From: a virus
Lineage: Duplodnaviria > Heunggongvirae > Uroviricota > Caudoviricetes
Reading direction: 5' to 3' (one strand)
IMG/VR virus record: IMGVR_UViG_2850796239_000009
DNA: 56,870 nucleotides
Position numbers and translations under genes: made by a program. A model generated the notes under the pieces. The model was not told the DNA's origin. It did no database searches and saw nothing but the letters and a program-made list of their open reading frames with translations. Shown here piece by piece: positions 14,999-36,541 of the stretch. Every line of letters begins with the position of its first letter. Position 1 is the stretch's first letter.

Positions 14999-15026
14999 AA
15001 ACGTCCACCATTCCCACCCTTCTGGG

Positions 15027-17133: not shown

Positions 17134-17261
17134 TTATGTCTATCATCTCACCGTAGTTGCCCGCATCGTTCGCCAACTCCACTGAAACCCTTGCTGCGTC
17201 TGGAATGTCGTTTTCCATGCTTTTGATGACCGTTCATCACCCTTCCAGTTTTTCGCGGTTT

Positions 17262-17315
17262 TGTGTATTGCAATGTGTATTGCAAATTGGCGATCGGGAT
17301 GGGTGTGTATTGCAA
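17262..17315 (+). repeat. Three direct TGTGTATTGCAA repeats next to attL (putative integrase arm-type sites)
   Basis: TGTGTATTGCAA at 17262-17273, 17274-17285 and 17304-17315, just upstream of int; two related copies lie near attR. Confidence 0.45.
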
Positions 17316-17333
17316 ATCTCTTGAGGGCTTTTA

Positions 17334-18574
17334 ATGGCTATTGAAAACAAACTCAGTGACAAACTGTTAAAGAGTCTTGTCGGAAAACGGCAGGACAAAC
17401 AAAAAACAATAGCGGATGGGCGCGGGTTGTCTGTGCGTGTAAGCATGGTTGGGGGATCAGCTTTGTTTTTTACTATCGTCTTGGTGGCAGGGAATCCCCT
17501 CCGGTATGGCTTACACTTGGTCGCTATCCTGACATGTCTCTTGCAACGGCCAGGCGCATGCGTGATCAGTGCCGTGAATGGCTGGCTGAAAATCTGGACC
17601 CCCGCAGGCAAATAAAACTTGCTGCCGAAAAAACTATGCAACCAGTGACCGTAAGGGATGCGCTGTTTTACTGGTACGACAATCACGCCACAACAGCCAG
17701 AAAAGAGCATGAATATTTAATAAAACGATTTGAAAAGCATATCTTCCCCTATATCGGTGATATGGCTATAGAACAGTGCAAATTACACACATGGCTTACC
17801 GTCTTTGACAGGATCAAAAAAAATGCGCCTGTTATGTCTGGTGCAATTTTTCTTGATATCAAACAGGCGTTGCGTTTTTGTCGCGTCAGGCAATACATCG
17901 CGTGCGATCCCTTTGGAGATATTAACGTAAGTTATGTCGGGCGCTCATCCGGTATAAGGGATCGCGTTCTTAATATCAATGAAACCGCTGATGTATGGTC
18001 TTATGCTTACGGTAATAATTTGCTAACTCTGTCATCAATATATAACCGAAGAATAATGGTTATCTGCCTGGTGTTTGGTTGCCGACAGCAGGAGGCGAGG
18101 CTATCCACCTGGGACGAATGGGATTTAAAAAACTGGGTATGGACAGTCCCAAAAGAGCACAGCAAAAACAAGGAGGCTATAGTAAGGCCTGTTCCTGACG
18201 GAATAAAACAATGGATCGTTAATCTTTACGCAGAAACAAAAAATCGCGGTTATGTTGTCGGTTGTGCTTTGCAAAGGGCGACAATAACAGGGGCTGCAAA
18301 CAGAATATGCAGGCGTCTTGGTCATGATACTAATGGCTTGTGGTGCATACATGATTTCAGGCGCACATTTTCCACTACGCTTAATGATATGGGGGCGGAT
18401 CCTTATATTGTCGAACTTCTTTTAGGTCATAAAGTGAAAGGGGTTGCTGGTGTTTACAATAAAAGCAGGCATATAAAGAAAAAACTTGAGGTGCTTAATA
18501 TGTGGGTTAATTACCTTAATACGATAGCAGGATTTAACAACAACGTTATCGAGCTTAATAAAGAGGTGGTGTGA
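17334..18574 (+). pseudogene. int: Tyrosine integrase (P4/CP4-57 type), frame broken in a T6 run
   Basis: MAIENKLSDKLLKSLVGKRQDKQKTIADGRGLSVRVS... switches frame at TTTTTT (17466-17471) to ...YRLGGRESPPVWLTLGRYPDMSLATARRMR... with catalytic domain (HDFRRTF, LLGH). Confidence 0.8.
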
Positions 18575-18575
18575 T

Positions 18576-18833
18576 ATGGCAATTTATTCTCTTGTTGATG
18601 AAAACGATTTGCGCACAATGAAGGACATTGATCGGTTCATTCGTGAAAAAGAGTGCATAGCACTTACCACGCTGGCAAACTCAACACGCTGGAAAATGGA
18701 GCAGGCAGGTAAATTCCCGCGACGTATCAAGATCGGTGAACGTGCTGCAGGGTATCGACTTTCAGAGGTTCAGGCATGGATCCGTGGTGAGTGGCATCCT
18801 GGATGGAAACCTGGAAAAACAAAACAGCAATAA
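18576..18833 (+). CDS. AlpA-family HTH regulator / excisionase-like
   Basis: 85-aa ORF with ...ALTTLANSTRWKMEQAGKFPRRIKIGERAAGYRLSEVQAWIRG, the AlpA/Xis MerR-like HTH pattern; immediately follows int. Confidence 0.6.
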   Translation: MAIYSLVDENDLRTMKDIDRFIREKECIALTTLANSTRWKMEQAGKFPRRIKIGERAAGYRLSEVQAWIRGEWHPGWKPGKTKQQ

Positions 18834-18846
18834 CCAGTAAATAATG

Positions 18847-18869
18847 CCCCTCATCACGAGGGGTTTTTT
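18847..18869 (+). terminator. Rho-independent terminator after int-alpA
   Basis: CCCCTC-ATCAC-GAGGGG hairpin followed by TTTTTT. Confidence 0.5.
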
Positions 18870-18889
18870 GTCTATAAGGTAAAAACGCG

Positions 18890-19468
18890 ATGAATAAAAA
18901 TATTGCCGTGACGGGCAAGGGGTACGCTCGTCCAGTGAAAAAATTCTGCGATATTCGTGATCTCGTCGTTCTGCGCTTTGATAGTGTGAACGTTCGTGTG
19001 GTGTATCTGAACGGCGATCCGTGGTTTGTTGCAAAAGATGTTTGTGCTGCGCTGGAACTAACCAATTCGCGTACGGCGTTGCAGATGCTTGATGATGATG
19101 AAAAGGGAGTAAATTTAACTTACACCCCAGGAGGAAATCAGAATATGAGAATTATCTCTGAGTCAGGTTTCTACAAACTAATAGCCCGCAGCCGCAAAGC
19201 AACGACGCCTGGCACATTTGCTCATCGTTTCAGTAACTGGGTATTCAGAAATGTGATACCAGGTATCAGAAAAACGGGGACTTATGGTATCCCGTGGGGT
19301 GCATTACAGGATTTTTCCCGCCGTAAAGAGCAATATCAAATAAGTGCCAGCGAGAAGGGGAGGGAGCTACAGGCATGTAAGCGCAAAAAGCGTGAGCTGG
19401 AGGAAGAAGAAAAAACGCTGATACGTGAATATCAGCCTGAGTTTTACTTTGGTAACCGCATTCAGTGA
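18890..19468 (+). CDS. BRO-N / KilA-N domain protein (antirepressor-like)
   Basis: 192-aa ORF with N-terminal ...LNGDPWFVAKDVCAALELTNSRTALQMLDDDEKG..., the Bro-N domain pattern. Confidence 0.6.
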   Translation: MNKNIAVTGKGYARPVKKFCDIRDLVVLRFDSVNVRVVYLNGDPWFVAKDVCAALELTNSRTALQMLDDDEKGVNLTYTPGGNQNMRIISESGFYKLIARSRKATTPGTFAHRFSNWVFRNVIPGIRKTGTYGIPWGALQDFSRRKEQYQISASEKGRELQACKRKKRELEEEEKTLIREYQPEFYFGNRIQ

Positions 19469-19801
19469 CAAAACAAAGGCGACCGCAAAAGGGTCGCCAG
19501 TGGGAACAAGGGAAAACAAAAGCATCACCAACAATGCCACATTTGCGGCTGGTGGGCAATGTGATCAGTCAGATTTGGTTCGTTCCAAGGTTTGCAACGA
19601 GAGCTTTTTCCTGTGCTCTTTAAGGAATTTCTCAAGAGCAAACGAACAAGGTGCGAATCTTTCTGATTCATGTTCATGCGCTATATTTTTGCGTCGTCTC
19701 TTACGAGTTGGTGATGGTGTTTTGGTTGATTCTGTGTCGCTCATGGTGCTGTCCTGTAAAGCAATGCGCCTGCGTTCCTCAAACTATGGCGCTGATATTG
19801 G

Positions 19802-20107
19802 CTATTCATGCTCTTTGACCTTGCGTCGCTGGAGTTCTTCACGCGCGACGGTGACGAGTTGCCCGATCTCCTCGGCTGCTTTGATGCCGATTTGTTCGAC
19901 CTTAGCCAGGGCATCCAGTGACGACACAAGGGGATTTTCTCCGCTGCCTTCTGCTTGGCGGCGGGCTATTTCTCCGCGCATGGCGGTTACGATAAATCCG
20001 GCATTGCTTTCACCGTCCAGCTTAACGGATTCCATCCCTTGCATAACATCTAGTGGGACTCTGACAGTTGTCAGTTGTGATTTTGCGTTTTTGTTAGCCG
20101 TTGCCAT
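19802..20107 (-). CDS. Putative ribbon-helix-helix DNA-binding regulator
   Basis: 101-aa ORF whose N-terminus (TTVRVPLDVMQGMESVKLDGESNAGFIVTAMRGEIARRQ) has an RHH-like strand-helix-helix pattern; divergent from the downstream operon. Confidence 0.35.
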   Translation of the reverse strand: MATANKNAKSQLTTVRVPLDVMQGMESVKLDGESNAGFIVTAMRGEIARRQAEGSGENPLVSSLDALAKVEQIGIKAAEEIGQLVTVAREELQRRKVKEHE

Positions 20108-20168
20108 TTCTGAAACTCCTAATCATCGGTGTGTTTCAGTATACACAAAAAAAGAAATACAAAAAGCC

Positions 20169-20206
20169 TTGACGTGTGTTTCATGCGCTCATAACATGAA
20201 ACACAC
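20169..20206 (+). promoter_or_regulatory. Putative promoter (-35 TTGACG) overlapped by a 12-bp inverted repeat operator
   Basis: GTGTGTTTCATG-n9-CATGAAACACAC perfect inverted repeat at 20174-20206 in the divergent intergenic region. Confidence 0.35.
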
Positions 20207-20348
20207 CGAAAGGATTGTTGAAATACAAAGAGCAACGCCCCGCAGTGCTGGGAACACATACGGGGCGTCTAACCAACAACGTAAACTAGGCTGTGTCCCT
20301 TAATCATCTGAGCTATAGTAACTGTCTGTTTACACAACATATTGAACT

Positions 20349-20798
20349 ATGGCTCGCTACGACCTTCCCGATGAGGCATGGACCATCATCAAGCCCCTGT
20401 TACCTCCTGAACCCGCCACACCACGGGCCGGACGCCCATGGGCTGAGCACCGTAAAATCATCAATGGCATGTTCTGGGTGTTATGTTCCGGTGCACCATG
20501 GCGCGATTTACCCGAACGATATGGGTCATGGAAAACTGTTTATAACCGCTTTAACCGATGGTCAAAGTCAGGCGTGATTAATATTATTTTCAACAGGTTG
20601 CTTTCGCTACTTGATGCAAACGGCTTTATTGACTGGTCTGCCACCGCGCTGGATGGCAGTAATATCCGGGCGCTGAAATGTGCCGCCGGTGCTCAAAAAA
20701 ACATCCCGATATCGACGGAGATAATGGGCCGGGTCGCTCTCGCGGCGGTTTTGGCACCAAAATCCATCTGGCAACAGACGGAAGTGGCCTCCCGTTAA
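20349..20798 (+). CDS. IS5-family transposase OrfA (copy 2)
   Basis: 149-aa ORF MARYDLPDEAWTIIKPLLPP...; A7 slippery run (GCTCAAAAAAAC) near its end feeds into orfB. Confidence 0.8.
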   Translation: MARYDLPDEAWTIIKPLLPPEPATPRAGRPWAEHRKIINGMFWVLCSGAPWRDLPERYGSWKTVYNRFNRWSKSGVINIIFNRLLSLLDANGFIDWSATALDGSNIRALKCAAGAQKNIPISTEIMGRVALAAVLAPKSIWQQTEVASR

Positions 20799-21193
20799 AT
20801 ATCGTGCTAAGCCCCGGACAAGCTCATGAAAGCCAGTTCGCGCAACGACTTCTGGACGGGATTGGCGTTCAGCGTCAGAACGGCAGCATGAAACGCCGTG
20901 GACATGCGGTACTGGCTGATAAAGCGTATTCAGGGCGCGCATTGCGCAACGAGCTGAAAAATAACGGTATAAAGGCAGTAATCCCCCGAAAGTCAAATGA
21001 GAAAATGGCATCGGATGGACGTGCACAGCTTGATCGTGATGCGTACCGCAATCGTAATGTCGTTGAACGGTGCTTTGGGCGGCTGAAAGAATATCGCCGC
21101 ATCGCCACGCGTTACGACAAAACGGCGAGAAATTACCTGGCGATGGTGAAACTGGGCTGCATCCGACTCTTTTATCAACGCTTACGTAATTAA
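20678..21193 (+). CDS. IS5-family transposase OrfB (DDE domain; likely OrfAB fusion by -1 frameshift)
   Basis: 171-aa ORF overlapping orfA in the -1 frame. Confidence 0.75.
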   Translation: MCRRCSKKHPDIDGDNGPGRSRGGFGTKIHLATDGSGLPLNIVLSPGQAHESQFAQRLLDGIGVQRQNGSMKRRGHAVLADKAYSGRALRNELKNNGIKAVIPRKSNEKMASDGRAQLDRDAYRNRNVVERCFGRLKEYRRIATRYDKTARNYLAMVKLGCIRLFYQRLRN

Positions 21194-21215
21194 GGGACAC
21201 AGCCTAGGAGCCGTT

Positions 21216-21413
21216 ATGGTTGCTGTAAATCATATACCACACCTTGTACACACACAAACGGCCTTTGTGTGGCGTTTTCTGGCACTGAGTGCCGGAGAAT
21301 CTCAAATCATCCACGTAACCGCCTGGACGGAACGCGAAGCGCGTAGCCGTTGCCCGTCCGGTTGTGTTGCTGTATTCGCTGCAAAAATCCGCCAGGGAGT
21401 GAGTCATGCTTAA
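21216..21413 (+). CDS. Hypothetical small protein (satellite operon)
   Basis: 65-aa ORF starting right after the IS5-family copy. Confidence 0.25.
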   Translation: MVAVNHIPHLVHTQTAFVWRFLALSAGESQIIHVTAWTEREARSRCPSGCVAVFAAKIRQGVSHA

Positions 21414-21591
21414 AACCTTCCGTGTATTTGCCCGAGCTGTTAACCCAATAGGCCACACAATTGGTATCGCTCAGAATGTGAAGGCTGTTAATGTTCAGAC
21501 GGCTATTGCTGCGGTGAGAAGCGAATCATCAGAATATGGCTTATCACAAGTCATTATTTCAGCAGTGTATGAATTAAAAGAGGTGCATTAA
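21406..21591 (+). CDS. Hypothetical small protein (satellite operon)
   Basis: 61-aa ORF overlapping its neighbours. Confidence 0.3.
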   Translation: MLKTFRVFARAVNPIGHTIGIAQNVKAVNVQTAIAAVRSESSEYGLSQVIISAVYELKEVH

Positions 21592-21782
21592 TGCAGGAAA
21601 TTACATTACACGAAGCCGCTGAACGTGCGCACCAGACAGAAATTATTTGCCGCCTTCTTGAGGTATACCCGAACAAAATTACAGATGCTGATATATCCGC
21701 ACTGGCGAGCCTACTGGCGCGTCTTTCGGGAAGTGTCGCTAGTTTTTTGATTGAGGAAGAAAGTAAGCTGGTGGGGGATTAA
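21591..21782 (+). CDS. Hypothetical small protein (satellite operon)
   Basis: 63-aa ORF with overlapping stop/start. Confidence 0.3.
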   Translation: MQEITLHEAAERAHQTEIICRLLEVYPNKITDADISALASLLARLSGSVASFLIEEESKLVGD

Positions 21783-22004
21783 ATGAATACAGAACGGGAA
21801 GTCTTTTTTAAATTGTTAGCATGTGCAGAAAGTTCATTAACTTTAAATAATTCAGCAAAAGCAATATTAAATATGTGGCTTGATTGCATAAATGACAATG
21901 AAGATGCAAATATTGCTTATGGCCTGTTGTCACTTATTGATGAATCAGCAGAAAAACTCAATGACGCAATAAATAGTGCCCTGCTATCAAATAAGTCGAG
22001 TTAA
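21783..22004 (+). CDS. Hypothetical small protein (satellite operon)
   Basis: 73-aa ORF. Confidence 0.3.
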   Translation: MNTEREVFFKLLACAESSLTLNNSAKAILNMWLDCINDNEDANIAYGLLSLIDESAEKLNDAINSALLSNKSS

Positions 22005-22021
22005 GTCGAGGAATAAATAAT

Positions 22022-22321
22022 ATGGAAATGAAAAATTCTGGCTTTATTGCCAGCGGCCCCGCTCGACCTGAATTTATGAACGGCGATATTTACCGCGATA
22101 AATACGGCGGCACGGTAACGATTAAAGGCGTGGCAGAACGGCGCATCACTTACCGCCGTGAGGGGTATAGCTATGACTGCGTGATGCCTGTTTATCAGTT
22201 CCGGCGTGATTTTTCCCTGGTATATGCCGCACCCCGCAGTAAGCCCATCAGCAGGGAAAAAGCGTGGGGAAATATCCAGAAAATGAAAACCATGATTAAC
22301 GGATTCAGAGGTAAAAAATGA
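22022..22321 (+). CDS. Hypothetical protein (satellite operon)
   Basis: 99-aa ORF whose stop overlaps the pri-rep start. Confidence 0.3.
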   Translation: MEMKNSGFIASGPARPEFMNGDIYRDKYGGTVTIKGVAERRITYRREGYSYDCVMPVYQFRRDFSLVYAAPRSKPISREKAWGNIQKMKTMINGFRGKK

Positions 22322-24071
22322 AACTGGCACCGAACGTAAAACAGCAGTCACGCGGCATAAAACACAAAGGAACAGAAGTAATTATTTTTGCGGGTAGTGA
22401 TGCCTGGGCACACGCGAAACAATGGCAGGAACATGATGCGCGTATGGCCGGAGATAATGAGCCTCCTGTGTGGCTTGGGGAGCAGCAGCTATCCGAACTG
22501 GATAATCTGCAAATTGTGCCGGAAGGCCGAAAATCAGCACGCATATACAGGGCCGGATATCTTGCGCCTGTAATGATAAAGGCGATTGGTCAGAAGCTGG
22601 CGGCAGCAGGCGTACAGGATGCAAATTTTTATCCTGAGGGTATGCACGGCCAGGAGGTGCAGAACTGGCGCGAATATCTGGCCCGTGAACGCCAGAATCT
22701 TTCTGATGGTCTGGTCATTGAGCTTCCGGTAAAGCAAAAGGCGCAACTTTCGCAGATGGCGGACAGTGAGCGCGCGCAGTTGCTTGCCGATCGCTTTGAT
22801 GGCGTTTGCGTACATCCTGAAAGTGAAATCGTTCACGTATGGCGCGGCGGGGTATGGTGTCCGGTCAGCACAATGGAACTTAGCCGCGAAATGGTGGCGA
22901 TCTATTCAGAGCACAGGGCCACTTTCAGCAAGCGCGTAATCAATAACGCCGTGGAAGCGTTAAAAGTTATTGCCGAACCAATGGGCGAGCCGTCTGGCGA
23001 TTTGCTGCCGTTCGCCAATGGTGCGCTTGACCTGAAAACGGGGGAATTTTCCCCGCACACGCCGGAGAACTGGATCACCACGCACAACGGCATTGAGTAC
23101 ACGCCACCAGCACCAGGGGAGAACATCCGCGATAACGCGCCAAACTTTCATAAATGGCTTGAGCACGCAGCCGGAAAAGACCCGCGCAAGATGATGCGTA
23201 TATGTGCCGCGCTGTACATGATTATGGCGAACCGGTACGACTGGCAGATGTTTATTGAGGCCACCGGAGACGGCGGGAGCGGTAAAAGTACATTCACACA
23301 CATAGCCAGCCTTCTGGCAGGGAAACAGAACACGGTAAGCGCTGAAATGACATCGCTTGATGATGCTGGTGGACGTGCGCAGGTTGTCGGGAGTCGTCTT
23401 ATCGTCCTGGCTGACCAGCCGAAATATACAGGCGAAGGAACGGGCATCAAGAAAATCACAGGCGGCGACCCGTGGAAATTAACCCGAAATATGAAAAGCG
23501 TTTCACGGCGGTAATCAGGGCGGTGGTGCTGGCGACCAACAACAACCCGATGATATTCACCGAACGGGCCGGAGGTGTGGCACGTCGTCGCGTGATTTTC
23601 CGTTTCGACAATATCGTCAGTGAGGCCGAAAAAGACAGGGAGCTACCGGAAAAGATTGCGGCTGAAATCCCCGTTATTATCCGCCGATTGCTGGCGAACT
23701 TTACCGACCCTGAGAAGGCACGGGCTTTACTACTGGAACAGCGTGACGGTGATGAAGCACTGGCAATAAAGCAACAGACGGATCCGGTTATTGAGTTTTG
23801 CCAGTTCCTGAATTTTCTGGAGGAAGCGCGCGGCCTGATGATGGGTGGCGGTGGTGATTCAGTGAAGTACACGACCAGGAACAGCCTTTACCGCGTCTAT
23901 CTGGCGTTTATGGCATACGCGGGCAGGAGCAAACCGCTAAACGTGGCTGAGTTCAGCAAGGCCATGAAGCCAGCGGCGAAAGTTTACGGGCATGAATATA
24001 TTACGCGAAAAGTTAAGGGAGTAACGCAGACCAACGCAATTACAACAGACGATTGCGACGCGTTTTTATAA
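22318..24071 (+). pseudogene. Primase-helicase (pri-rep, D5/P4-alpha-like), frame broken near 23470
   Basis: Walker A GDGGSGKST; ...KITGGDP switches frame to VEINPKYEKRF...NNNP (helicase-like C-terminus); two ORFs 22318-23514 and 23472-24071. Confidence 0.7.
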
Positions 24072-24087
24072 TTTTTTGTAAAAGCCA

Positions 24088-24325
24088 TCTACCCCATCTA
24101 CCTGAACGAAATAAACGCATATTATTCAACATGATAAGTGGGTATAGGGCTAGGTAGAAGGCTAATAAAAGCTCTCTACCTCTTCTACCTGATTTTATCA
24201 GTTTCAGGTAGCAGGGTAGACGGCAGGTAGAGGAGTCAAAAAAGCTATCTACCCGCTGAAAGCGGCGCCATTACTGACATGATGAGCATTCGGGTAGATG
24301 GGTAGAGGGGGGAGGCACAACTAAA
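24088..24325 (+). repeat. Iteron cluster / putative satellite replication origin
   Basis: At least ten TCTACC/GGTAGA-type repeats in both orientations with AT-rich spacers, directly downstream of pri-rep. Confidence 0.5.
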
Positions 24326-24355
24326 AACTTTTTAAACGAGGGGGGGTGAAAATAA

Positions 24356-24670
24356 ATGCGCATACATAAAAATCACTTAACAAACATGCCAGCCGAAAAC
24401 ATGAATCAGGGGCGACAAATGACCAAAATTCGCAGAGACAGAACACAGGCAAAATATAAAGCGTTAGACATGACAGAGCTTTCCTTAAAGGTGGCAATCA
24501 AAGCGATAGACCACCACACACGGGCAGGATACGCGAAGGAACATCCCGACCTGATAAGCGCATTCATGACCACAGCAGCGGCAAACTTTGCCACGCTGAC
24601 AGAACGGGAGATTGCCGAAGCGGAACAGGTGACAACCATCAATGTTAAAACCGGAGAGCAGACAGCATGA
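24356..24670 (+). CDS. Hypothetical protein
   Basis: 104-aa ORF; no recognisable motif. Confidence 0.3.
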   Translation: MRIHKNHLTNMPAENMNQGRQMTKIRRDRTQAKYKALDMTELSLKVAIKAIDHHTRAGYAKEHPDLISAFMTTAAANFATLTEREIAEAEQVTTINVKTGEQTA

Positions 24671-25089
24671 CAGCACAGATAGCGGCTTACGGGCGGCTGG
24701 TGGCTGACCCGCAGTTAAAGACCACCAGCAAAGGGACACAAATGGCGATGGCGAGTATGGCGGTTCCCCTGCCGTGCAGCCAGGCAGATGACGGAACGGC
24801 GACGATGTGGTTATCCGTCCTGGCGTTTGGCAGACAGGCCGACGCACTGGCAAAACACCACAAAGGCGAACTGGTGAGCGTGGCGGGTAACATGCAGGTA
24901 AGCCAGTGGACAGGCCAGAACGGCGAAACGCGGCGGGGCTGGCAGGTTATCGCAGACAGCGTAATCAGTGCGCGAACGGCGCGACCGGGCGGCAAAAAAG
25001 GCCAGCAGGGGCAGGCCACTGACGCACTGAACAGGGCAAAACAACAGTCGGGGAATGATGATCCGTACGGCGATAATATACCGTTTTAA
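24667..25089 (+). CDS. SSB-like single-stranded DNA-binding protein
   Basis: 140-aa ORF with Gly/Gln-rich linker and acidic C-terminal tip DDPYGDNIPF resembling the SSB tail DDDIPF. Confidence 0.5.
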   Translation: MTAQIAAYGRLVADPQLKTTSKGTQMAMASMAVPLPCSQADDGTATMWLSVLAFGRQADALAKHHKGELVSVAGNMQVSQWTGQNGETRRGWQVIADSVISARTARPGGKKGQQGQATDALNRAKQQSGNDDPYGDNIPF

Positions 25090-25300
25090 ATTCTGCAAAC
25101 AAAAAGATGCCGGAAAAAAATAGATTTTCCGGCATGCTACATAAATCCCGACCAAAGGAAGTAAATACATTAACACGAATTATCAGCACTGAAGTTGTTA
25201 CGGCATATTTTATACAACATTGCACTTGGTTGCATGTGTTCGCATAGCAGACATCGGTAATAGAATATATTCACAATTATTTGTAATGAATGTAAAGAGG

Positions 25301-26347
25301 ATGAGTATGGTTGATTTATATTCGCCTACACAGCTTGTGCAGGTGGCTAATGCTGAAGATGTGCAAAAAAATTAAATGCGTTGTTTACCAGTTTGTTTTT
25401 CACTCGCTCGGTAATGTTTGAATCGAGAGACATTATTCTTGATACGATCGACGATCCAAATATCCCGATCGCGGCGTTTTGCTCTCCTATGGTGGGCAGT
25501 AAAGTTTCACGAGATGAGGGATACGAATCAAAAACAATTCGTCCAGGTTATATGAAGCCGAAAAGCAGCATTGATCCAAATAAGTTAGCTGTGCAGCCCT
25601 GCTGGTGTGTCACCTGAGCAATACAATGCTTTTGGGGCGCGTAATATTAAAGTTAAACAGGCGATTGTAAATCAGGCTAAAGCTATTCGTGCACGTATTG
25701 AATGGCTTGCTGTTCAGGCAATCACAACGGGGAAAAATATCATTGAGGGCGATGGTATTGAACGTTATGAGCTGGACTGGAATATAAAACCACAAAATAT
25801 CATCACTCAGTCTGGCGGTACTGAGTGGTCAGGTAAGGATAAAGAAACTTTTGATCCAAATGATGATATTGAGAGCTACGCAGAATTTAGTGAGGGCGTC
25901 ACTAATATCATCATTATGGGTGGTAATGTATGGAAGAAATACCGTTCATTCAGAGCGATAAAAGAGGCTTTGGATACCCGTCGTGGTTCTAATTCCGAAC
26001 TGGAAACGGCCCTTAAAGACCTTGGTGATTCGGTGAGTTTTAAAGGGTATATGGGCGATGTTGCGATTGTTGTTTACAGCGGGCGTTATACCGACGAGGA
26101 CGGAACAGAAAAACATTTCCTTGATCCTGATTTGATGGTGCTTGGCAATACGGCTCTTCAGGGGATTGTCGCCTATGGCGGTATTCAGGATCCGGAGCTA
26201 ATCCGAATGGGGCTGACTAAAGCCGAACTTGCACCGAAAAACTATATTGTGCCTGGTGATCCGGCTATTGAATATGTGCAGACACATTCAGCACCACAGC
26301 CAATACCGGCCCGCATCAATCGTTTTGTTACCGTTCGCATTGGCTAA
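25301..26347 (+). pseudogene. Major capsid protein paralog (lambda gpE-like) encoded by the satellite; two homopolymer frame breaks
   Basis: MSMVDLYSPTQLVQVANAEDVQK (compare gpE MSMYTTAQLLAANEQKF), then ...ITQSGGTEWS...DTRRGSNSELETALKDLG...GDVAIVVYSG... alignable with the helper gpE at 31416-32441; breaks at the A7 run 25365-25371 and CCC at 25597-25599. Confidence 0.75.
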
Positions 26348-26356
26348 GGGGGAGCA

Positions 26357-26698
26357 ATGGCTACTCATTACACTGAACTCATGGCTGGCACTGAAGCACT
26401 GGTGACTACGCTGGGGATATTTTCAGCTAATAAAGGGGTAATTCCTGCATTTACGCCACTGATGCAGGAAGATGCAACAGGTGCACTGGTGGTATGGGAT
26501 GGTTCGAGCGTAGGTAAAGCGGTTTATGTTTCCGCTGTACAAATCGACACCGCGAAAAAAACACAGGCTCAGGTCTATAAGACAGGTGTCTTAAATGTTG
26601 ATGCTCTGAACTGGCCTGAGTCTGTTAAAGAACTGTCAGTAAAGGTTGCAGCGTTTGTTGGCTCAGGTATTTCTGTTCAGCCGCTGGCTCGTGTGTAA
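26357..26698 (+). CDS. Head decoration protein paralog (lambda gpD-like) encoded by the satellite
   Basis: 113-aa ORF with ...AFTPLMQEDATGALVVWDGSSVGKAVYVSAVQID... alignable with helper gpD (...[35 protein letters not shown]...). Confidence 0.7.
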   Translation: MATHYTELMAGTEALVTTLGIFSANKGVIPAFTPLMQEDATGALVVWDGSSVGKAVYVSAVQIDTAKKTQAQVYKTGVLNVDALNWPESVKELSVKVAAFVGSGISVQPLARV

Positions 26699-26709
26699 AG
26701 GGGGATACA

Positions 26710-27093
26710 ATGCAGAATGATTACAATGACCTTAAGCCAATTGCCGAAATGATGTACCCGAATCCAGCTGTAGAGGAATTAAAAGCTATCGCTGACAAAA
26801 TGTGTTTAAGCGAGCGCCTTGTTGATATGAATCAGGTGATGGAAATTACAACCCTGAGTCGTCGTACACTGCTAAACCTTGAGGCTAGTGGAGAGTTCCC
26901 GGAGCGTGTGCAGGTTACGGAAGGGCGTAAGGCCTGGTATTTAAGTGAAGTGATCGACTGGATAAATAATATTCCTCGCGCTTCTGAATATTGCCGCGTA
27001 CCTGTCCCAAAAAAGCCAGATGCGGCGCTATGCCTCAAGATTGAGCGTGTACGCCGCAATGCACGGGATGGTCGCTATAAGCTGATTGGTTGA
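26710..27093 (+). CDS. AlpA-like HTH DNA-binding protein
   Basis: 127-aa ORF with ...MEITTLSRRTLLNLEASGEFPERVQVTEGRKAWYLSEVIDWINN, a MerR/AlpA-like HTH pattern. Confidence 0.45.
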   Translation: MQNDYNDLKPIAEMMYPNPAVEELKAIADKMCLSERLVDMNQVMEITTLSRRTLLNLEASGEFPERVQVTEGRKAWYLSEVIDWINNIPRASEYCRVPVPKKPDAALCLKIERVRRNARDGRYKLIG

Positions 27094-27149
27094 TGAAATT
27101 AGGGCCCGCTCTGGCTGGCGGGTCCTTTCCGGTGATCCGGTAGGCTACG

Positions 27150-27161
27150 GGGCGGCGACCT
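27150..27161 (+). other. Satellite cos site (cosN GGGCGGCGACCT, helper-like cosQ, divergent cosB)
   Basis: GGGTCCTTTCCGGTGATCCGGTAGGCTACGGGGCGGCGACCTCGCGGGTTTTCGCTATTTATGA matches the helper cos at 12131-12195 almost base for base, then diverges. Confidence 0.75.
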
Positions 27162-27282
27162 CGCGGGTTTTCGCTATTTATGAGCCTTTTTCGGGTGCTG
27201 GTGGTGGTTTTGTTGTTCGCTCTATCTCTATGAATAAAAAGGAAAAGATAAAGCCAATACACCAACCTGAAACATTACTTAA

Positions 27283-27837
27283 GTGGGGATATTGATGAAA
27301 TCGCACCTGATGAACAAAAAAAACATGGCGCAAAGCTGCCGTGTAAGTGCGACAGCGTTCGACAAGTGGGGAGTGACTCCCGTTGAACGTAAAGGCCGCG
27401 AGGCGTTTTATGATGTTGCCAGCGTAATAGACAATCGGGTTAGCAATGCAATTAACCAGATTACAGACGACAAAGGCGAGATTGATGATGATGAACTCCT
27501 ACGAGTCAGGATCAGATTGCTGACAGCACAGGCAGAGGCGCAGGAGCTTAAAAACGAGCGCGAACGCGGCGACGTTATTGATACAGCGTTTTGTATATAC
27601 GTGCTTTCAAAATTGGCGAGTCAGATTTCTTCAATCATGGACAGCCTGCCGCTTGCCATGACAAGGAAGTTTCCCGACATGAAGCCGTCTATGCTGGATG
27701 GACTGAAAAAAGAAGTTATCAGAGCCTGTAACGCATGCGCAAAACTTGACGAAAACATACCGCTGATGCTGTCCGATTATCTGATGGAAACTGCCGGAAA
27801 CGTACCGGATAAGTTGCAGCCGAATAAAGATAAGTAA
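27283..27837 (+). CDS. Satellite terminase small subunit (Nu1-like; divergent N-terminal domain)
   Basis: C-terminal part ...LTAQAEAQELKNERERGDVIDTAFCIYVLSKLASQISSIMDSLPL... parallels Nu1 ...[46 protein letters not shown]...; true start may be Met-10 (27310). Confidence 0.7.
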   Translation: MGILMKSHLMNKKNMAQSCRVSATAFDKWGVTPVERKGREAFYDVASVIDNRVSNAINQITDDKGEIDDDELLRVRIRLLTAQAEAQELKNERERGDVIDTAFCIYVLSKLASQISSIMDSLPLAMTRKFPDMKPSMLDGLKKEVIRACNACAKLDENIPLMLSDYLMETAGNVPDKLQPNKDK

Positions 27838-27848
27838 CGTAGTACGCT

Positions 27849-28130
27849 ATGACTGAATCCGAAATACTGCGATTAATCCGCCGTGCTTGTGGAATCAGCA
27901 AGCAGCATGACGAACAGGCCACGCAGCCGGACAGCGTGACCGCAGATAATTATGTGCGTGTAGTGGCTGAGGTGATGCGCCGTGACGGTATTGAGCTTAA
28001 CGGCGTGGATATGCGCAACATACGAACAAGAGTCCTTGAGTTGCTGGCATATCGTCGCCGTTCTCAACAACGGAGGGAGAGCGCGAAAAATACTTACCAG
28101 TGGAAGAAGCCGGAACGATTGCGGCGGTAA
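27849..28130 (+). CDS. Hypothetical protein
   Basis: 93-aa basic ORF after terS. Confidence 0.3.
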   Translation: MTESEILRLIRRACGISKQHDEQATQPDSVTADNYVRVVAEVMRRDGIELNGVDMRNIRTRVLELLAYRRRSQQRRESAKNTYQWKKPERLRR

Positions 28131-28560
28131 CTTGCTGATATTCCCGATAACGCAAAATTGCGCTGGCTGACTTGTTGCATTGCAAAAAGTTAAGCAGGAA
28201 GGCACGGCCTGTAAGATGGGATGCAGTAAGTAGTTCAAGGCTACCTTGTGCTGGCACGCACAGTTAAGCCGTCGGTGCTGGATATCCCCCACTGGGGAAA
28301 AGCTGGCTACATCCCTCACATCTGAGGACTGATAACGCGACATTGCGCTGGCTGGCAAAGTGCAAAATTGCACGATGGCCTAACCCATTGATTATTTCGA
28401 AAACCTGCAATGCAGGAAATCGGGGAAGTAAGCCTAAGCTATTGATTGTTTCGAAAACCCCCATTGGGGGATGTCGGGAAAGTAAGACTAACCCATTGAT
28501 TCTTCCACAATCCTCAATTTGAGGAGGCCGGAACGTCTACATAGCTGCATCGCCGTAATG
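28130..28560 (+). repeat. Array of direct repeats each containing a different perfect palindrome (covarying stems)
   Basis: Three tandem ~54-bp units (28383-28545) share ATTGATTnTTyC...TCGGGrAAGTAAG and hold CCTGCA-A-TGCAGG, CCCCCA-T-TGGGGG, CCTCAA-T-TTGAGG; related pair GATAACGCnAnATTGCGCTGGCTG at 28146 and 28331 with CGCAA-AA-TTGCG, TTGCA-T-TGCAA, GTGCAA-AA-TTGCAC. Confidence 0.6.
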
Positions 28561-28843
28561 ATGATTCAGCCCACCAGCCAAATCAGCACAGCAACGACAG
28601 AATAGCCCGACACAGAAAAACCACGAATATGGGGTTTTTGTTATGACATGGTCATGATGACCACTCATACAAAACAGGTAAAGCCCACCAGCCTGATTAA
28701 AGGTTAACCGGAAAAAAGCCAGGTATCCAATCTCGATATGGGGATCCCTATATCGACATTAACGCCCACTAAAACTGTGCATATATGCATAGAAAAAGCA
28801 TCCACCAGCTTTATGACGGATGCCGCTCATCTTATAAATAATC

Positions 28844-28866
28844 GTGTATTGCAGTGTGTATTGCGA
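28844..28866 (+). repeat. Two GTGTATTGC repeats next to attR (arm-type-like)
   Basis: CGTGTATTGCAGTGTGTATTGCGA, related to the TGTGTATTGCAA repeats at attL. Confidence 0.4.
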
Positions 28867-28946
28867 CTCCTTTAAACGATAGGTCTGAGCATTCGTAATG
28901 TACTGTTTTTAAATTTTATTTTTTCCTGTCTTTTCATAAAGGCGAT

Positions 28947-29718
28947 GTATGCCGCCACCATTGAGAGTGAGCTGGATACGCAGTCAGCGATGGATTTTAT
29001 TCTGGGCGCGAACAGTAAGGAGCAGCGGGACAAGCTGACCGGCTGGATTGGTGAAATTGCCGCGTATTACGCCGCAGCACCGGTCCGTCTGGGAGGCGCA
29101 AAAGTGCCGCACCTGATGCCGGGGGACTCACTGAACCTGCAGACGGCTCAGGACACGGATAACGGCTACTCCGTGTTTGAGCAGTCACTGTTGCGGTATA
29201 TCGCTGCCGGGCTGGGTGTCTCGTATGAGCAGCTTTCCCGGAATTACGCCCAGATGAGCTACTCCACGGCACGGGCCAGTGCGAACGAGTCGTGGGCGTA
29301 CTTTATGGGGCGGCGAAAATTCGTCGCATCCCGTCAGGCGAGCCAGATGTTTCTGTGCTGGCTGGAAGAGGCCATCGTTCGCCGCGTGGTGACGTTACCT
29401 TCAAAAGCGCGTTTCAGCTTTCAGGAAGCCCGCAGCGCCTGGGGGAACTGTGACTGGATAGGCTCCGGTCGTATGGCCATCGATGGTCTGAAAGAAGTAC
29501 AGGAAGCGGTGATGCTGATAGAAGCCGGACTGAGTACCTACGAGAAAGAGTGCGCAAAACGCGGTGACGACTATCAAGAAATTTTTGCCCAGCAGGTCCG
29601 TGAAACGATGGAGCGCCGTGCAGCCGGTCTTAAACCGCCCGCCTGGGCGGCTGCGGCATTTGAATCCGGACTGCGACAATCAACAGAGGAGGAGAAGAGT
29701 GACAGCAGAGCTGCGTAA
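28947..29718 (+). pseudogene. B: Portal protein gpB, C-terminal fragment
   Basis: MYAATIESELDTQSAMDFILGANSKEQRDKLTGW...LRQSTEEEKSDSRAA matches recalled gpB residues ~284-533; resumes exactly where 16327-17133 stops. Confidence 0.85.
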
Positions 29719-31027: not shown

Positions 31028-31360
31028 ATGACGAGCAAAGAAACCTTTACCCATTACCAGCCGCTGGGCAACAGTGACCCGGCTCATACCGCAACCGCGC
31101 CCGGCGGATTGAGTGCGAAAGCGCCTGCAATGACCCCGCTGATGCCGGACACCTCCACCCGTAAGCTGGTTGCGTGGGATGGCACCACCGACGGTGCTGC
31201 CGTTGGCATTCTTGCGGTTGCTGCTGACCAGACCAGCACCACGCTGACGTTCTACAAGTCCGGCACGTTCCGTTATGAGGATGTGCTCTGGCCGGAGGCT
31301 GCCAGCGATGAGACGAAAAAACGGACCGCGTTTGCCGGAACGGCAATCAGCATCCTTTAA
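31028..31360 (+). CDS. D: Head decoration protein gpD
   Basis: [27 protein letters not shown]...; followed by a GCCGCCTGTGCGGC hairpin. Confidence 0.9.
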
Positions 31361-31415: not shown

Positions 31416-32441
31416 ATGTCGATGTACACAACCGCCCAGCTGCTGGCGGCAAATGAGCAGAAATTTAAGTTTGATCCGCTGTTTCTGCGTCTCTTTTTCC
31501 GTGAGAGCTATCCCTTCACCACGGAGAAAGTCTATCTCTCACAAATTCCGGGACTGGTAAACATGGCGCTGTACGTTTCGCCGATTGTTTCCGGTGAGGT
31601 TATCCGTTCCCGTGGCGGATCCACCTCTGAATTTACACCGGGATATGTCAAGCCCAAGCATGAGGTGAATCCGCAGATGACCCTGCGTCGCCTGCCGGAT
31701 GAAGATCCGCAGAATCTGGCGGACCCGGCTTACCGCCGCCGTCGCATCATCCTGCAGAACATGCGAGACGAAGAGCTGGCCATTGCTCAGGTCGAAGAGA
31801 TGCAGGCCGTTTCTGCCGTGCTCAAGGGCAAATACACCATGACCGGTGAAGCCTTCGATCCGGTTGAGGTGGATATGGGCCGCAGTGCGGCGAACAACAT
31901 CACGCAGTCCGGCGGCACGGAGTGGAGCAAGCGTGACAAGTCCACGTATGACCCGACCGACGATATCGAAGCCTACGCGCTGAACGCCAGCGGCGTGGTG
32001 AATATCATCGTGTTTGACCCGAAAGGCTGGGCGCTGTTCCGTTCCTTCAAAGCCGTCAGGGAGAAGCTGGATACCCGTCGCGGCTCTCATTCCGAACTGG
32101 AGACAGCGGTAAAAGACCTGGGCAAAGCGGTGTCTTATAAGGGAATGTATGGCGATGTGGCCATCGTCGTGTATTCCGGACAGTACGTGGAAAACGGCGT
32201 CAAAAAGAACTTCCTGCCGGACAACACGATGGTGCTGGGTAACACTCATGCACGCGGTCTGCGCTCCTATGGCTGTATTCAGGATGCGGATGCATTGAGT
32301 GAGGGTATTAATGCGTCTCCCCGTTATCCGAAAAACTGGAAGACATCCGGCGATCCGGCGCGAGAGTTCACCATGATTCAGTCAGCACCGCTGATGCTGC
32401 TGGCTGATCCTGATGAGTTCGTGGCCGTTCAACTGGCGTAA
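31416..32441 (+). CDS. E: Major capsid protein gpE
   Basis: MSMYTTAQLLAANEQKFKFDPLFLRLFFRESYPFTTEKVY..., 341 aa, matches recalled lambda gpE. Confidence 0.95.
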   Translation: MSMYTTAQLLAANEQKFKFDPLFLRLFFRESYPFTTEKVYLSQIPGLVNMALYVSPIVSGEVIRSRGGSTSEFTPGYVKPKHEVNPQMTLRRLPDEDPQNLADPAYRRRRIILQNMRDEELAIAQVEEMQAVSAVLKGKYTMTGEAFDPVEVDMGRSAANNITQSGGTEWSKRDKSTYDPTDDIEAYALNASGVVNIIVFDPKGWALFRSFKAVREKLDTRRGSHSELETAVKDLGKAVSYKGMYGDVAIVVYSGQYVENGVKKNFLPDNTMVLGNTHARGLRSYGCIQDADALSEGINASPRYPKNWKTSGDPAREFTMIQSAPLMLLADPDEFVAVQLA

Positions 32442-32523
32442 TCATGGCCCTTCGGGGCCATTTTCTCTCTGTGGAGGAGTCCATGACGAAAGTAAGCGCT
32501 CCGAGAAGTACGTAGCGTAAGGA

Positions 32524-34124
32524 TTATTTTACAGACGAGAAGTTCCAGGGCAGCAGTTCATGCACTTGGTTCGACGGCCAGTCATTGAGCTTCTCGATCA
32601 CTTCGCGCAACCAGTCCTCCGGCTCCACTTCGTTCTGTTTGCAGGTGACCAGCAGACTGTAGATGATCGCCGCACTTTCTCCTCCCTTGTCTGAGCCGAA
32701 AAAGAGATAATTTTTTCTTCCAACCGCCACCGATCGTAACGCGTTTTCACCGATGTTGTTGTCTATTTCCACCCAGCCGTCACGACAGAACTCGTTCAGC
32801 GCATTCCAGTGATTCAGGATATAGTCGAACGCCTTCGCCATCTCCGCATGTTTCGACAGCGTTTTCCTCTGCAACTGTATCCAGTCGTACAACGACTGCA
32901 TCAACTGGACGCTTCTGGCTTTTCTGACTGCAAGCCGTTCCTCTGCCGGACTGCCACGTATCTCCGCTTCTATGTCGTATAACTCTGCTATCCGTCTGAG
33001 CGCTTCCTGAGTCATTTCTGTCGGACGGCGCACATCCTCGTCATGGATTTTTCGGCGGGCGTGGGCCAGGCACCCGGCTTCCTTCACCCGGCCCGTTTCG
33101 TACAGTACGTTATAACCTGCATAGGCATCAGCCTGCAGTACGCCCTGATACTTTGCCAGGTGGAGCTGCGGATGTTCTCCTTTGCGATCTGCCGAATACG
33201 CGAACCAGACGGCTGCCGGCAGGGATGAACCCGCATTACGATCATCCCTGACGTATACCCACAGACGACCCGTTTTCGTCTTTCCGTTCCCCGGGGCCAG
33301 TACTTTCACCGGAGTGTCATCTGCGTGCACCTTTCCTGCCTCCAGAACATAGTCATTCAGCGCTATATACAGAGGACGGAGTTTGTCTGCCATTTCTGAT
33401 ACCCAGCGCACCATGGTATTACGGCTCAGCTCCACGCCCTGTCGCGCGTATATTTCTGACTGGCGATATAAAGGGATATGTTCCATATATTTGCTGACCA
33501 GGATCCGTGCAAGTAACCCTGCACTGGCATAACCGCGTTCGATCGGTTTAGGGGAAGTGGTGCCTGAACGATGACATCACACCGGCTACAGGCCAGTTTG
33601 GGACGTATGGTTTCGATAACTTTAAAGGCGGTATTAATGATATCCAGTTGCTCTGAGATTGTTTCCCCCATTTCTTTCAGAACACCTCCACAGGCCGGGC
33701 AACTGGTTTCAGCAGGCAGAAGGCGATGTGTCTCCCGGGGAAGTTCTGCCGGCAGCGGTTTTCGTGAAGATTTTCGTCCCGGGGATTCAGGCTTACTGGC
33801 GATCGGGTTTTCTGACGGGGGACTGGTGTCAGGTGAATCTGTGACTGACGATGCATCTTCCAGAAGATTTCTGGCTGTGTTCAGCCGGTTTTCCAGTTCC
33901 GACAGTCGTTTTTCTGCCTGTCGGATCTGATTTTCAAGCTTATGACGCTTTTTCTCTGAACTCTGGCCGAACAACATACGACGCAACCTGTCGAGTTGCG
34001 CTTTCAGCCGTTCAATTTCCTGCTCATAGCCCGCGACCTGACAGGCATACTGTCGAAGCCGACTCTGTTGCTTACGCAACATGGCTTTAAGCAGCTCAAT
34101 ATCATCGGGGAGTTCATTGTTCAT
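32524..34124 (-). pseudogene. IS66-family transposase TnpC, frame broken near 33520
   Basis: N-terminal zinc-finger part (CPACGG...CSRCDV) at 33426-34124 and C-terminal DDE part ([17 protein letters not shown]...) at 32524-33486 lie in different frames. Confidence 0.75.
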
Positions 34125-34143
34125 TCCCTTGTTTTATCACGGG

Positions 34144-34491
34144 TTATATCCGGATGCCAGGCCGTTCTGTCCGTTTGGGATGTTGCCACGCGATCCCCTC
34201 CAGTAGCATGGATAACTGAGCTGGCGTCAGGTGCACTTTCCCTTCCCGGGTCACCGGCCAGACGAAGCGGCCCCGTTCCAGGCGTTTGGCGAACAGGCAT
34301 AACCCGTCACGATCGGCCCACAGTATTTTCACCATTTTGCCACTGCGGCCCCGGAAGACGAAGATATGCCCGGAGAACGGGTCATCTTTCAGCGTGTTCT
34401 GCACCTTCGAAGCCAGGCCATTGAAGCCACAACGCATATCTGTGATGCCAGCGATGATCCAGATTTTGGTACCGGTCGGCAGCGTTATCAT
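34144..34491 (-). CDS. IS66-family TnpB
   Basis: 115-aa ORF MITLPTGTKIWIIAGITDMRCGFNGLASKVQ..., the IS66 Orf2 pattern. Confidence 0.8.
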   Translation of the reverse strand: MITLPTGTKIWIIAGITDMRCGFNGLASKVQNTLKDDPFSGHIFVFRGRSGKMVKILWADRDGLCLFAKRLERGRFVWPVTREGKVHLTPAQLSMLLEGIAWQHPKRTERPGIRI

Positions 34492-34619
34492 CGGATACCC
34501 CCTTTCATTTCGCGGATTAGCGCCCGTAACAGTTCCGGAGTGAGAGGGTCAAACAGTTTTACCACACCTGATTTAAGATGCAGCTCGCACCGTGGGACGT
34601 TTCCGGGAGCCCCCTCAGG

Positions 34620-35920
34620 CTGAGGAATCCCCAGAAAACGAGACAGACATAGCATTATGTGATCTACTGATTTGTGCCAACAATTCAATGAGATCACTGC
34701 TATGCCTGTTCATAAAGTATGTCAGAATTTCTTCCGGGATGCCTTAGCACCATTTCATCAGTACCGACAAAATGCCCTGATGGATGCCACAGTGGCGTTA
34801 ATCAACGGAGCATCTCTGACGCTGACCAGTATCGGACGTTTTTTGCCGGGTAATGCACAAGTTAAGAATAAGATCAAACGTATTGATCGCCTCATGGGTA
34901 ATGAGGCGCTCCATCGCGATATTCCAATGATTTTCAGGAATATCACTTCAATGCTGACACGGCAGTTATCTTTATGTGTAATAGCCGTAGACTGGAGTGG
35001 CTATCCCTCCCAGGAGCATCATGTTCTTCGTGCCAGCCTTCTGTGTGACGGGCGTTCCATTCCGTTATTGAGTAAGGTTGTTCCTTCTGAAAAACAAAAT
35101 AATCCATTGATACAACATGATTTCCTTGATTCCCTTGCTCAATCCCTGCCCCCCGATGCCAGGGTTATTATTGTCACGGATGCTGGATTTCAGAGCGCAT
35201 GGTTTCACCATATTACTTCTCTGGGCTGGGATTTTATTGGTCGGATCAGAAATAACGTTCAGTATTGCCTCGATAACGCGCCTGAAAGATGGTTAAAAGT
35301 GTCGGATAGCCCTGAATGTAAAACACCGGAATATATGGGGGCTGGAAGGCTGGTTAAAGAAAGGAAAAAAAGCATCCGGGGGCATTTTTACACCTATAAG
35401 AAATCGGCAAAAGGGCGAAAAAAGAAACGTTCGAAAGGTCAGAGTGGTTTAAACAAAACAGACAAAGAACAGAGCAAATCAGCAAAAGAAGCCTGGTTGA
35501 TCTTCAGCAGTACAAATGACTTCAGAGCGCGAGAAATCATCAAGTTATACAGTCGGCGAATGCAGATTGAGCAAAACTTTCGTGATGAAAAGAACGGGCG
35601 CTTCGGATTTGGTCTTCGGGCCAGCAAAAGTCGTTCAACAGGAAGAATTCTGGTTCTGAGTCTGCTGGCAACGTTGAGCACTATCGTAATGTGGTTACTC
35701 GGTTATCACGCTGAAAATAAAGGGTTACACCTGAAATATCAGGCTAACAGCATTAAATCCCGGCGGGTTATCTCATATCTGACGTTAGCGAAGAATGTTC
35801 TTCGACACTCGCCACTTATTTTAAGACGAACAGTACTGAGCACAGTTCTAAACCATCTGTCCAGAACCTACCGAAATATGGTGCTGGTTTATTAGCAGTA
35901 ATTTTGTGGGGATCCCTCAG
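34620..35920 (+). mobile_element. IS10-like (IS4-family) insertion sequence, copy 2, 1301 bp, nested in the IS66-family element
   Basis: Ends CTGAGGAATCCCCA...TGGGGATCCCTCAG; 9-bp target duplication CCCCTCAGG at 34611-34619 and 35921-35929. Confidence 0.85.
34672..35895 (+). CDS. IS10-like (IS4-family) transposase, intact copy
   Basis: 407-aa ORF with DDE-type architecture similar to the IS10 transposase. Confidence 0.8.
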   Translation: MCQQFNEITAMPVHKVCQNFFRDALAPFHQYRQNALMDATVALINGASLTLTSIGRFLPGNAQVKNKIKRIDRLMGNEALHRDIPMIFRNITSMLTRQLSLCVIAVDWSGYPSQEHHVLRASLLCDGRSIPLLSKVVPSEKQNNPLIQHDFLDSLAQSLPPDARVIIVTDAGFQSAWFHHITSLGWDFIGRIRNNVQYCLDNAPERWLKVSDSPECKTPEYMGAGRLVKERKKSIRGHFYTYKKSAKGRKKKRSKGQSGLNKTDKEQSKSAKEAWLIFSSTNDFRAREIIKLYSRRMQIEQNFRDEKNGRFGFGLRASKSRSTGRILVLSLLATLSTIVMWLLGYHAENKGLHLKYQANSIKSRRVISYLTLAKNVLRHSPLILRRTVLSTVLNHLSRTYRNMVLVY

Positions 35921-36541
35921 CCCCTCAGGGCGCTCATCATGCTTGTTACGCCAGAAGGGATTTGTAACTGGTCTGGTCGGCTCCGGCGTATCAGTCAGTG
36001 CCACCGGGACAGGCATGCATTCCTGTATGTCATCATCGCTCAGTAAGCCGTCCTCGTACTGGCTTTTCCATTTAAACAGCAGGTTATCATTGATATCGTG
36101 TTCTCTGGCGATCCGGGCAACAACAGCCCCAGGCTGTAACGCCTGCTTAGCCAGACGGACCTTAAATTCACGGCTATAGCTGGTTCGCCGTTCTTTTCGC
36201 CATGAGCCTTCTCTGATTTGAGGCTCTGTTAATTCCTTCTTTCTGTTGGCATAAAGGATGGCGTCAAGTTGAGCGAATGAAACTGAATCGGGCAATGGCC
36301 ATGCGATACCGGATGCAAGAAATCGCTGAAAAAGCGTATGTATTGTGGAATGACTGAGACCCAGACGCTGAGCGATGGCCCGGATGGTCAGTTTATCTTC
36401 AAATCTTAAACGCAGGGCATCAGGCAAATAAGAACGGAAGCAGGGAATATCTTTTGTTGTCTGGGAATTCATCGTTCGTGTCCATCAATATAGATGGGCG
36501 CGATTGTTGCCAGACAGGACAATTTTCACAAGACGTCGCTG

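Follow-up and report, generated by a model that had tools for sequence, protein, structure and literature searches.

The stretch of DNA analysed here (the window, 56,870 nucleotides) contains a lambdoid prophage whose portal gene is interrupted by a satellite element, and within this satellite lie two adjacent genes, here called E' and D', that are related respectively to the genes for the major capsid protein (gpE) and the head decoration protein (gpD) of the prophage itself. The features on which the following discussion depends are these:

16346–17185, + strand: portal gene B, 5' part, cut by the satellite (ORF translation; blastn to the intact portal gene)
17134–28946, + strand: satellite (a helper-embedded PICI), 11.8 kb in total, made up of about 10.9 kb and a 0.9-kb IS (split portal gene; collinearity with CFSAN018748; synteny with EcCICFT073)
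25307–26347, + strand: E', PICI-type major capsid protein gene (gpE family), with two frameshifts in the window (PF03864; prophage E; EcCICFT073 c1499; PDB 3BQW/7VI9)
26357–26698, + strand: D', PICI-type head decoration protein gene (gpD family), intact (PF02924; prophage D; EcCICFT073 c1500; PDB 1TD0/1C5E/7VII)
26710–27093, + strand: second AlpA-family HTH regulator, directly 3' of D' (PF05930)
27118–27194, no strand assigned: satellite cos, lambda-type cosQ/cosN (89.6% identical to the prophage cos at 12129–12205)
27295–27837, + strand: TerS', a paralog of Nu1 (the lambda small terminase) that is full-length but diverged in its N-terminal, DNA-binding part (PF07471 profile positions 80–162)
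27849–28130, + strand: conserved 93-aa hypothetical protein, the final satellite gene (75% identical to the last EcCICFT073 gene)
28945–29718, + strand: portal gene B, 3' part (ORF translation; blastn to the intact portal gene)
31028–31360, + strand: prophage gpD (decoration), upstream of E (ORF translation; alignment with D')
31416–32441, + strand: prophage gpE, major capsid protein (ORF translation; alignment with E')

The limits of the satellite are set by the gene it interrupts. It cuts the lambdoid portal gene at 17133/28946, between ...VKA and MYAAT..., and blastn comparison with the intact portal gene places a common core, AAGGCGAT, at both junctions. Between these the genes follow the order int, alpA, Bro-N, ylcI, icd-like, DUF4222, pri, SSB, E', D', alpA-like, cos, TerS' and the hypothetical gene, and the whole is collinear, at 98.8–99.7% identity, with an element of E. 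coli CFSAN018748. In the intact relative the integrase has the domains PF00589 and Arm-DNA-bind_3 and the AlpA regulator matches PF05930; the gene order in the window agrees with this, and the genes are co-oriented. The replication module, the primase-helicase pri, has D5_N, DUF5906 and Pox_D5 domains and is frameshifted in the window. Compared with EcCICFT073, the identities are 97.6% for Pri, 69% for SSB, 55% for E', 54% for D' and 40% for the integrase. The alpA-like gene beside D' is kept in loci L001, L002, L005 and L006, and the block comprising E', D', this alpA-like gene, cos and TerS' is the late or packaging block of the element. The terminal 93-aa protein had no Pfam match.

All genes between 17134 and 28946 are accounted for; genes for portal, protease, large terminase, tail and lysis are absent, in agreement with the original prediction as to the first three of these. 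Classification of the satellite as a cf-PICI was considered and is ruled out, since it lacks the portal, protease, connectors and TerL. The features of a Gram-negative PICI of the EcCICFT073 type are present, namely int and AlpA at the left end, pri, a size of about 10–15 kb, homologs of E' and D' in the late zone, and cos with TerS'. It can thus be held with very little doubt that E' and D' are the conserved capsid module of a PICI of this type, which lies within portal gene B of a decayed lambdoid prophage and runs in the same direction as that gene.

For E', the evidence of family membership comes from several kinds of comparison. Profile search with the 246-aa C-terminal ORF (25607–26347) matched Pfam Phage_cap_E (PF03864) with E=1.7e-31, at 109.9 bits as against a curated cut-off of 22.9, while a separate 78-aa piece (25381–25617) covers profile positions 19–85. 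The same 246-aa ORF is 47% identical to the prophage E protein (31416–32441) over 239 aa (E=5e-71), E' is 55% identical to c1499 of EcCICFT073, and the intact form of E' matches two solved structures, 3BQW (E=1e-121) and lambda gpE in 7VI9 (E=9e-78). Approximately 90 strongly conserved positions are common to E' and phage E, and the N-terminal region of E' is full-length; there are also motifs fixed in E' and specific to it, for example AFCSPMVGS and EYVQTHSAPQP. For D', the 113-aa product matches the HDPD family of Pfam (PF02924, lambda gpD) with E=4.5e-15 (56.3 bits, cut-off 29.1), is 38% identical to prophage D (E=5e-18) and 54% identical to EcCICFT073 c1500, and has structural matches in the head decoration protein of entry 1TD0 and in lambda gpD (1C5E/7VII). 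Because of the sequence matches to 3BQW, 7VI9, 1TD0 and 1C5E the folds can be taken as settled, and the predicted products are an HK97-fold coat protein of the lambda gpE family and a gpD-type cement protein. The claim that the satellite has diverged paralogs of both gpE and gpD is thereby upheld, by the profile search that had been proposed as a check of the two families as well as by the alignments with prophage E and D.

Where that claim needs amending is in its description of two adjacent ORFs aligning with their helper counterparts: the homology stands, but E' is not a single ORF in the window. When it is compared with its intact counterpart in E. coli CFSAN018748 (346 aa, WP_000228106.1, 99.9% identical), two single-base indels are apparent, one a loss (a missing A in an A-run at about 25364) and the other a gain (an additional A at 25595), as a result of which reading from the start codon ends after 22 codons. 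The start itself is likely to be the ATG at 25307 rather than position 25301, judging from the Shine-Dalgarno sequence AAAGAGGA at 25294–25301. With its frame broken in this way the window copy may produce no coat protein, and unless the indels arose in assembly it is probably inactive. Six single-base indels in all separate the satellite from the CFSAN018748 element (at 17450, 23468, 24306, 25364, 25595 and 28293); those at 24306 and 28293 are intergenic, while the remaining four disrupt int and pri (by one 1-nt deletion each) and E'. Of the six, five shorten a homopolymer run by 1 nt, and they could represent either real decay by slippage or errors of assembly. Elsewhere E' is intact, in hundreds of E. 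coli genomes.

It may also be mentioned that the stop codon of E' and the start codon of D' are in the same frame with 9 nt between them (window 26345–26359), and that there is in the databases a 463-aa protein (P0005) having both Pfam domains and resembling a read-through E'-D' fusion, although as a single sequence this may be an error.

Immediately beyond the alpA-like gene the satellite and prophage cos sequences resemble one another closely, as listed above, and then diverge after cosN; GGGCGGCGACCTCGCGGGTTTTCGCTATTTATGA is present in the cos sequences read. TerS' is 37% identical to the intact prophage Nu1 of locus L001. Comparison with the EcCICFT073 proteins found no homolog of RppA in the satellite; EcCICFT073 itself carries a 144-aa RppA in place of TerS'. 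For E. coli PICIs there seems to be no study of the variant of packaging hijack that employs TerS'.

As to the surrounding prophage, its own condition must be borne in mind whenever it is spoken of as a helper. The satellite lies inside the portal gene of this presumed helper, so that excision would be needed before portal could be made at all. Beyond this, the prophage Nu1 (12350–12706) stops early, at 118 aa as against 181, even though the stretch aligns gap-free with locus L001; the tape-measure and J genes are split; a 923-bp IS is present in three copies (10672–11591, 20286–21208, which is inside the satellite, and 49839–50761); an IS4-like element lies at the start of the portal gene (15026–16318, seen as a gap in the collinearity map); and a block of IS66 and IS4 lies 3' of prophage gene E (32492–36555). 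The "helper" prophage in the window is therefore itself defective, and the decay is real.

The original prediction had gone further than the presence of the two genes, suggesting that a satellite with its own shell and cement proteins differs from P4, the classical PICIs and the cf-PICIs and may use a distinct strategy of capsid hijacking. This does not survive comparison with the literature. In EcCICFT073, the prototype Gram-negative PICI, the syntenic genes c1499 and c1500 were described as capsid and head decoration genes by Fillol-Salom et al. in 2018 (PMC6092414), and the entry 3BQW ("putative capsid protein of prophage") aligns at residues 11–350 with c1499 of CFT073. A capsid gene was reported in 21 of 29 reference Gram-negative PICIs by Mageeney et al. 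in 2023, who also described helper-embedded PICIs in the late genes A, B, C and E (PMC10111431), and the PICI model of SatelliteFinder treats "Capsid morphogenesis" as a core component (PMC10085698). A further precedent is Ccm of SaPIbov5 (Hawkins et al. 2021, PMC8569155), a coat protein paralog encoded by a satellite; it redirects assembly, making up the pentamers in T=4 shells. Since the gene pair (described in E. coli PICIs from 2018 onwards), the type of element and the embedded configuration have all been published already, the claim of a new hijack strategy is unsupported; what is added here is the satellite-only E' clade, the reversed E-D order and the dN/dS values of 0.05–0.13, all of which are considered below.

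The relationship to these published systems can be stated more closely. Like EcCICFT073, the window PICI has the pair placed after pri-SSB and followed by packaging genes, has a lambda-type cos, and is without portal, protease and TerL. It differs in having another allele of E'/D', a different integrase, a Nu1-like TerS' instead of RppA and a frameshifted E', and also in its attachment site, which lies in the portal gene of the prophage and not, as there, on the chromosome beside phoQ. Like the helper-embedded PICIs of the 11capE type (PMC10111431), it is inserted in one of the four main target genes, in this case B, but unlike them it is, together with its prophage, degraded by IS elements and frameshifts. 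Since the target is the portal gene, the E' and D' that it carries are not duplicates of the gene interrupted. The likeness to SaPIbov5 is that in each case an HK97-fold paralog of the helper coat protein occurs in a cos-packaged satellite without portal or TerL; the differences are that Ccm acts alone and turns prolate heads into T=4 shells, whereas the window PICI has both coat and cement proteins, and that Ccm changes capsid size, whereas the prototype of the window PICI packages phage-sized DNA and has no known effect on size. With the cf-PICIs, of which EcCIEDL933 is an example and which encode portal, protease, head-tail connectors, HNH, TerS and TerL (10.1101/2022.09.08.507074), it has in common the int-alpA-pri backbone and a coat protein of its own, but of their head set it possesses only a TerS. 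Finally, lambda gpE and gpD (7VI9, 1C5E) belong, by sequence, to the same families and folds, with identities of 42% (E) and 38% (D), but in lambda the two genes stand in the opposite order and, unlike the satellite pair, have portal, protease and scaffold genes adjacent.

How widely the pair occurs was established by searching complete E. coli genomes by megablast. Matches to the E'-D' pair were found in 758 of 5,426, and in 366 of these 5,426 (approximately 7%) the allele of the window was present at 95% identity or more over the full length. A survey of whether the pair recurs beside int and pri-rep, which had been suggested as a check, found it in PICIs with several different integrases and sites. 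Portal-embedded carriers are those of the window, E. coli CFSAN018748, APEC O2-211 (the prophages of these last two being apparently more complete) and Edwardsiella tarda; E. coli IAI39 (L005) has an element embedded in E; and chromosomal PICIs with the block were found next to phoQ, at abgR-smrA, at cspD-clpS and at fis. The E'-D' block is thus modular, occurring in PICIs that differ in integrase and in site. The integrase of the window satellite is, in pairwise comparison, 50% identical to that of the E-embedded PICI of IAI39 and 88% identical to that of the portal-embedded PICI of Edwardsiella (L008), whereas between E. coli and Edwardsiella the identity of E' is only 59%. Similarly, D' is approximately 95% identical between the PICIs of L001 and L007, while E' is only 85% identical. 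Unequal identities of this kind between neighbouring modules imply recombination breakpoints between adjacent satellite genes.

The database matches of E' fall into two groups, at 52% identity or more and at 44% or less, and among 50,697 phage records there was no match above 42%. When a neighbour-joining tree was built without P0043, a phage/PICI chimera, 45 E' proteins (Escherichia, Salmonella, Serratia, Cedecea, Edwardsiella and Lelliottia) separated as one clade from phage-type E in 200 of 200 bootstraps. In the three contexts sampled, members of the E' clade were in PICIs with the order E-D, and a match of 43% identity was in a phage head operon with the order D-E. The same reversal is seen within the window itself, the satellite having E-D and the prophage, like phages, D-E. 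Had the satellite pair been a near-identical duplication of the helper head genes, one would have expected extensive similarity at the nucleotide level, but the two pairs, that of the satellite and that of the prophage, resemble one another over no more than 136 bp, at 73%. E' and D' belong to an old, satellite-only lineage and are not recent copies of helper genes. The chimera P0043 just mentioned, which is from an ENA metagenome contig, has its first 225 or so residues identical to phage-type E and its last 100 or so to PICI-type E', and may have arisen either by natural recombination between helper and satellite or by misassembly.

The pair also shows the marks of selection. For informative pairs, dN/dS by the Nei-Gojobori method was 0.05–0.09 for E' and 0.05–0.13 for D', similar to that of the PICI SSB gene, and approximately 98% of the database sequences of close alleles are full-length. 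Values as low as these imply that the genes are selected for some function. In one lineage a third paralog is present: the PICI at fis in Lelliottia sp. (L009 9001–11752) has, directly 3' of D', a gene for a 447-aa S49 protease/scaffold, C', which is 52% identical to prophage C and less than 60% identical to any phage record, and in its predicted gene content this PICI is intermediate between a classical and a capsid-forming PICI. The same element has a gene with a head-completion-protein domain near alpA. Another variation is seen in the E-embedded PICI of IAI39 (L005 11886–13028), where a gene for a TIR-domain protein lies on the opposite strand in place of the TerS' region and is probably defence cargo.

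What the function might be is a separate matter. None has been assigned to the E'/D' pair in the literature found up to mid-2026, in which there is likewise nothing on the function of 3BQW; the Tai defence paper and the EcCIMP1 paper are both silent on these genes. The experiments that bear on the question most directly were made with EcCICFT073. With c1499 or c1500 deleted, both transfer by the resident helper and interference with lambda stayed as before and lambda plaques were not recovered, a marker could take the place of c1499 without cost, and the DNA packaged with lambda was entirely phage-sized (PMC6092414); in his 2019 review Dokland noted that EcCICFT073 has a capsid homolog and yet gives capsids of normal size.

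Taking all of this together, the explanation we prefer has two parts, that E' and D' are a PICI capsid module and, much less securely, that they have a structural role in co-assembly, and to this explanation as a whole we would assign a probability of about 0.55. On induction of the helper and excision of the PICI, E' and D' would be produced together with the helper head proteins and would enter heads assembling on the helper portal, scaffold and protease; there they would co-assemble with helper gpE and gpD, or locally replace them, in the particles that receive PICI DNA by way of cos and TerS'. In the laboratory such a role would be redundant with helper E and D, while in nature the genes would be kept by selection, for instance for compatibility with varied helpers or for stability of the particle. 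In lambda, gpD binds only to expanded gpE lattices. Given this, that a cognate D' has been kept points to the presence of E' in mature heads filled with DNA. The full-length N-terminal region of E', the positions it has in common with phage E and the C' of the Lelliottia PICI likewise speak for a part in the structure. The particular proposition that E' and D' are incorporated into heads on helper components, with a role that is redundant under laboratory conditions, is put forward tentatively and at rather less than even odds. Against any structural role stands the lack of phenotype of the c1499 and c1500 deletions in EcCICFT073. The allele tested there is only 55% identical to the E' of the window, and the latter is frameshifted.

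A stronger form of the same idea, which we regard as possible but somewhat improbable, is that E' and D', joined in some lineages by C', build a satellite-specific or chimeric shell on the helper portal and scaffold, so that the element would be a "partly capsid-forming" PICI. Its effect on size, stability or helper range would then be visible only with natural helpers or under other conditions, and this reading would account for strong purifying selection without a laboratory phenotype.

Rather unlikely, in our estimation, is a redirection of capsid size of the kind brought about by Ccm, the small-shell idea of the original prediction, in which E' (with D') would occupy positions such as the pentamers and give T=4 or T=3 shells with room for one or two PICI genomes but not for that of the helper. 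The T=4 shells of SaPIbov5 are the natural model for this, PmCI172 has a capsid homolog and makes small capsids, and a PICI of about 10.9 kb is roughly one quarter of a lambdoid genome. This last figure can be read in the opposite sense, however, as four PICI units (approximately 43.6 kb) would about fill a lambda-sized head, a matter of arithmetic only and not of packaging limits; moreover, the idea is contradicted for the prototype, which gave only phage-sized DNA with lambda and kept its interference when c1499 or c1500 was deleted, and the full-length N-terminal region of E' is unlike that of Ccm.

It is less probable again that the pair serves for interference, with E' or D' or both acting as decoys in the assembly of heads, whether the helper's or those of other lambdoid phages, by poisoning it or competing in it, redundantly with Rpp or TerS'. 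PICIs do use several layered mechanisms against their helpers, and redundancy with Rpp would explain why single deletions kept interference, but purifying selection, the conservation of positions of assembly type and the retention of a cognate cement protein all suit a building block better than they suit a poison.

A proposal made in the literature for helper-embedded PICIs (PMC10111431) is that they bring with them an intact version of the interrupted late gene, which would still allow the helper head to be made, and the element embedded in E in IAI39 is of this description. It is very improbable here, and as a general explanation it is ruled out: the gene interrupted in the window and in L001, L002 and L008 is portal B, while the PICI carries E' and D' and no portal; the pair also occurs in the chromosomal PICIs (at phoQ, abgR-smrA, cspD-clpS and fis), where nothing is interrupted; and E' belongs to an old and separate clade. 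That the pair is non-functional cargo, or debris of a recent recombination with the helper head operon, would fit its dispensability in the laboratory and the frameshifted E' of the window, but is scarcely credible in view of the very limited nucleotide similarity, the reversed gene order, the monophyly of the satellite clade, the low dN/dS and the intactness of nearly all copies, and recombination debris in particular is ruled out by the first of these together with selection and phylogeny.

What is left, then, is a coat and cement pair that is found in a large share of enterobacterial PICIs, is under selection and is confined to satellites, and yet can be deleted without phenotype in the one system in which this has been tried. 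To find the role of E' and D' would be to bridge the classical PICIs, which steal whole heads, and the capsid-forming PICIs, which build their own.
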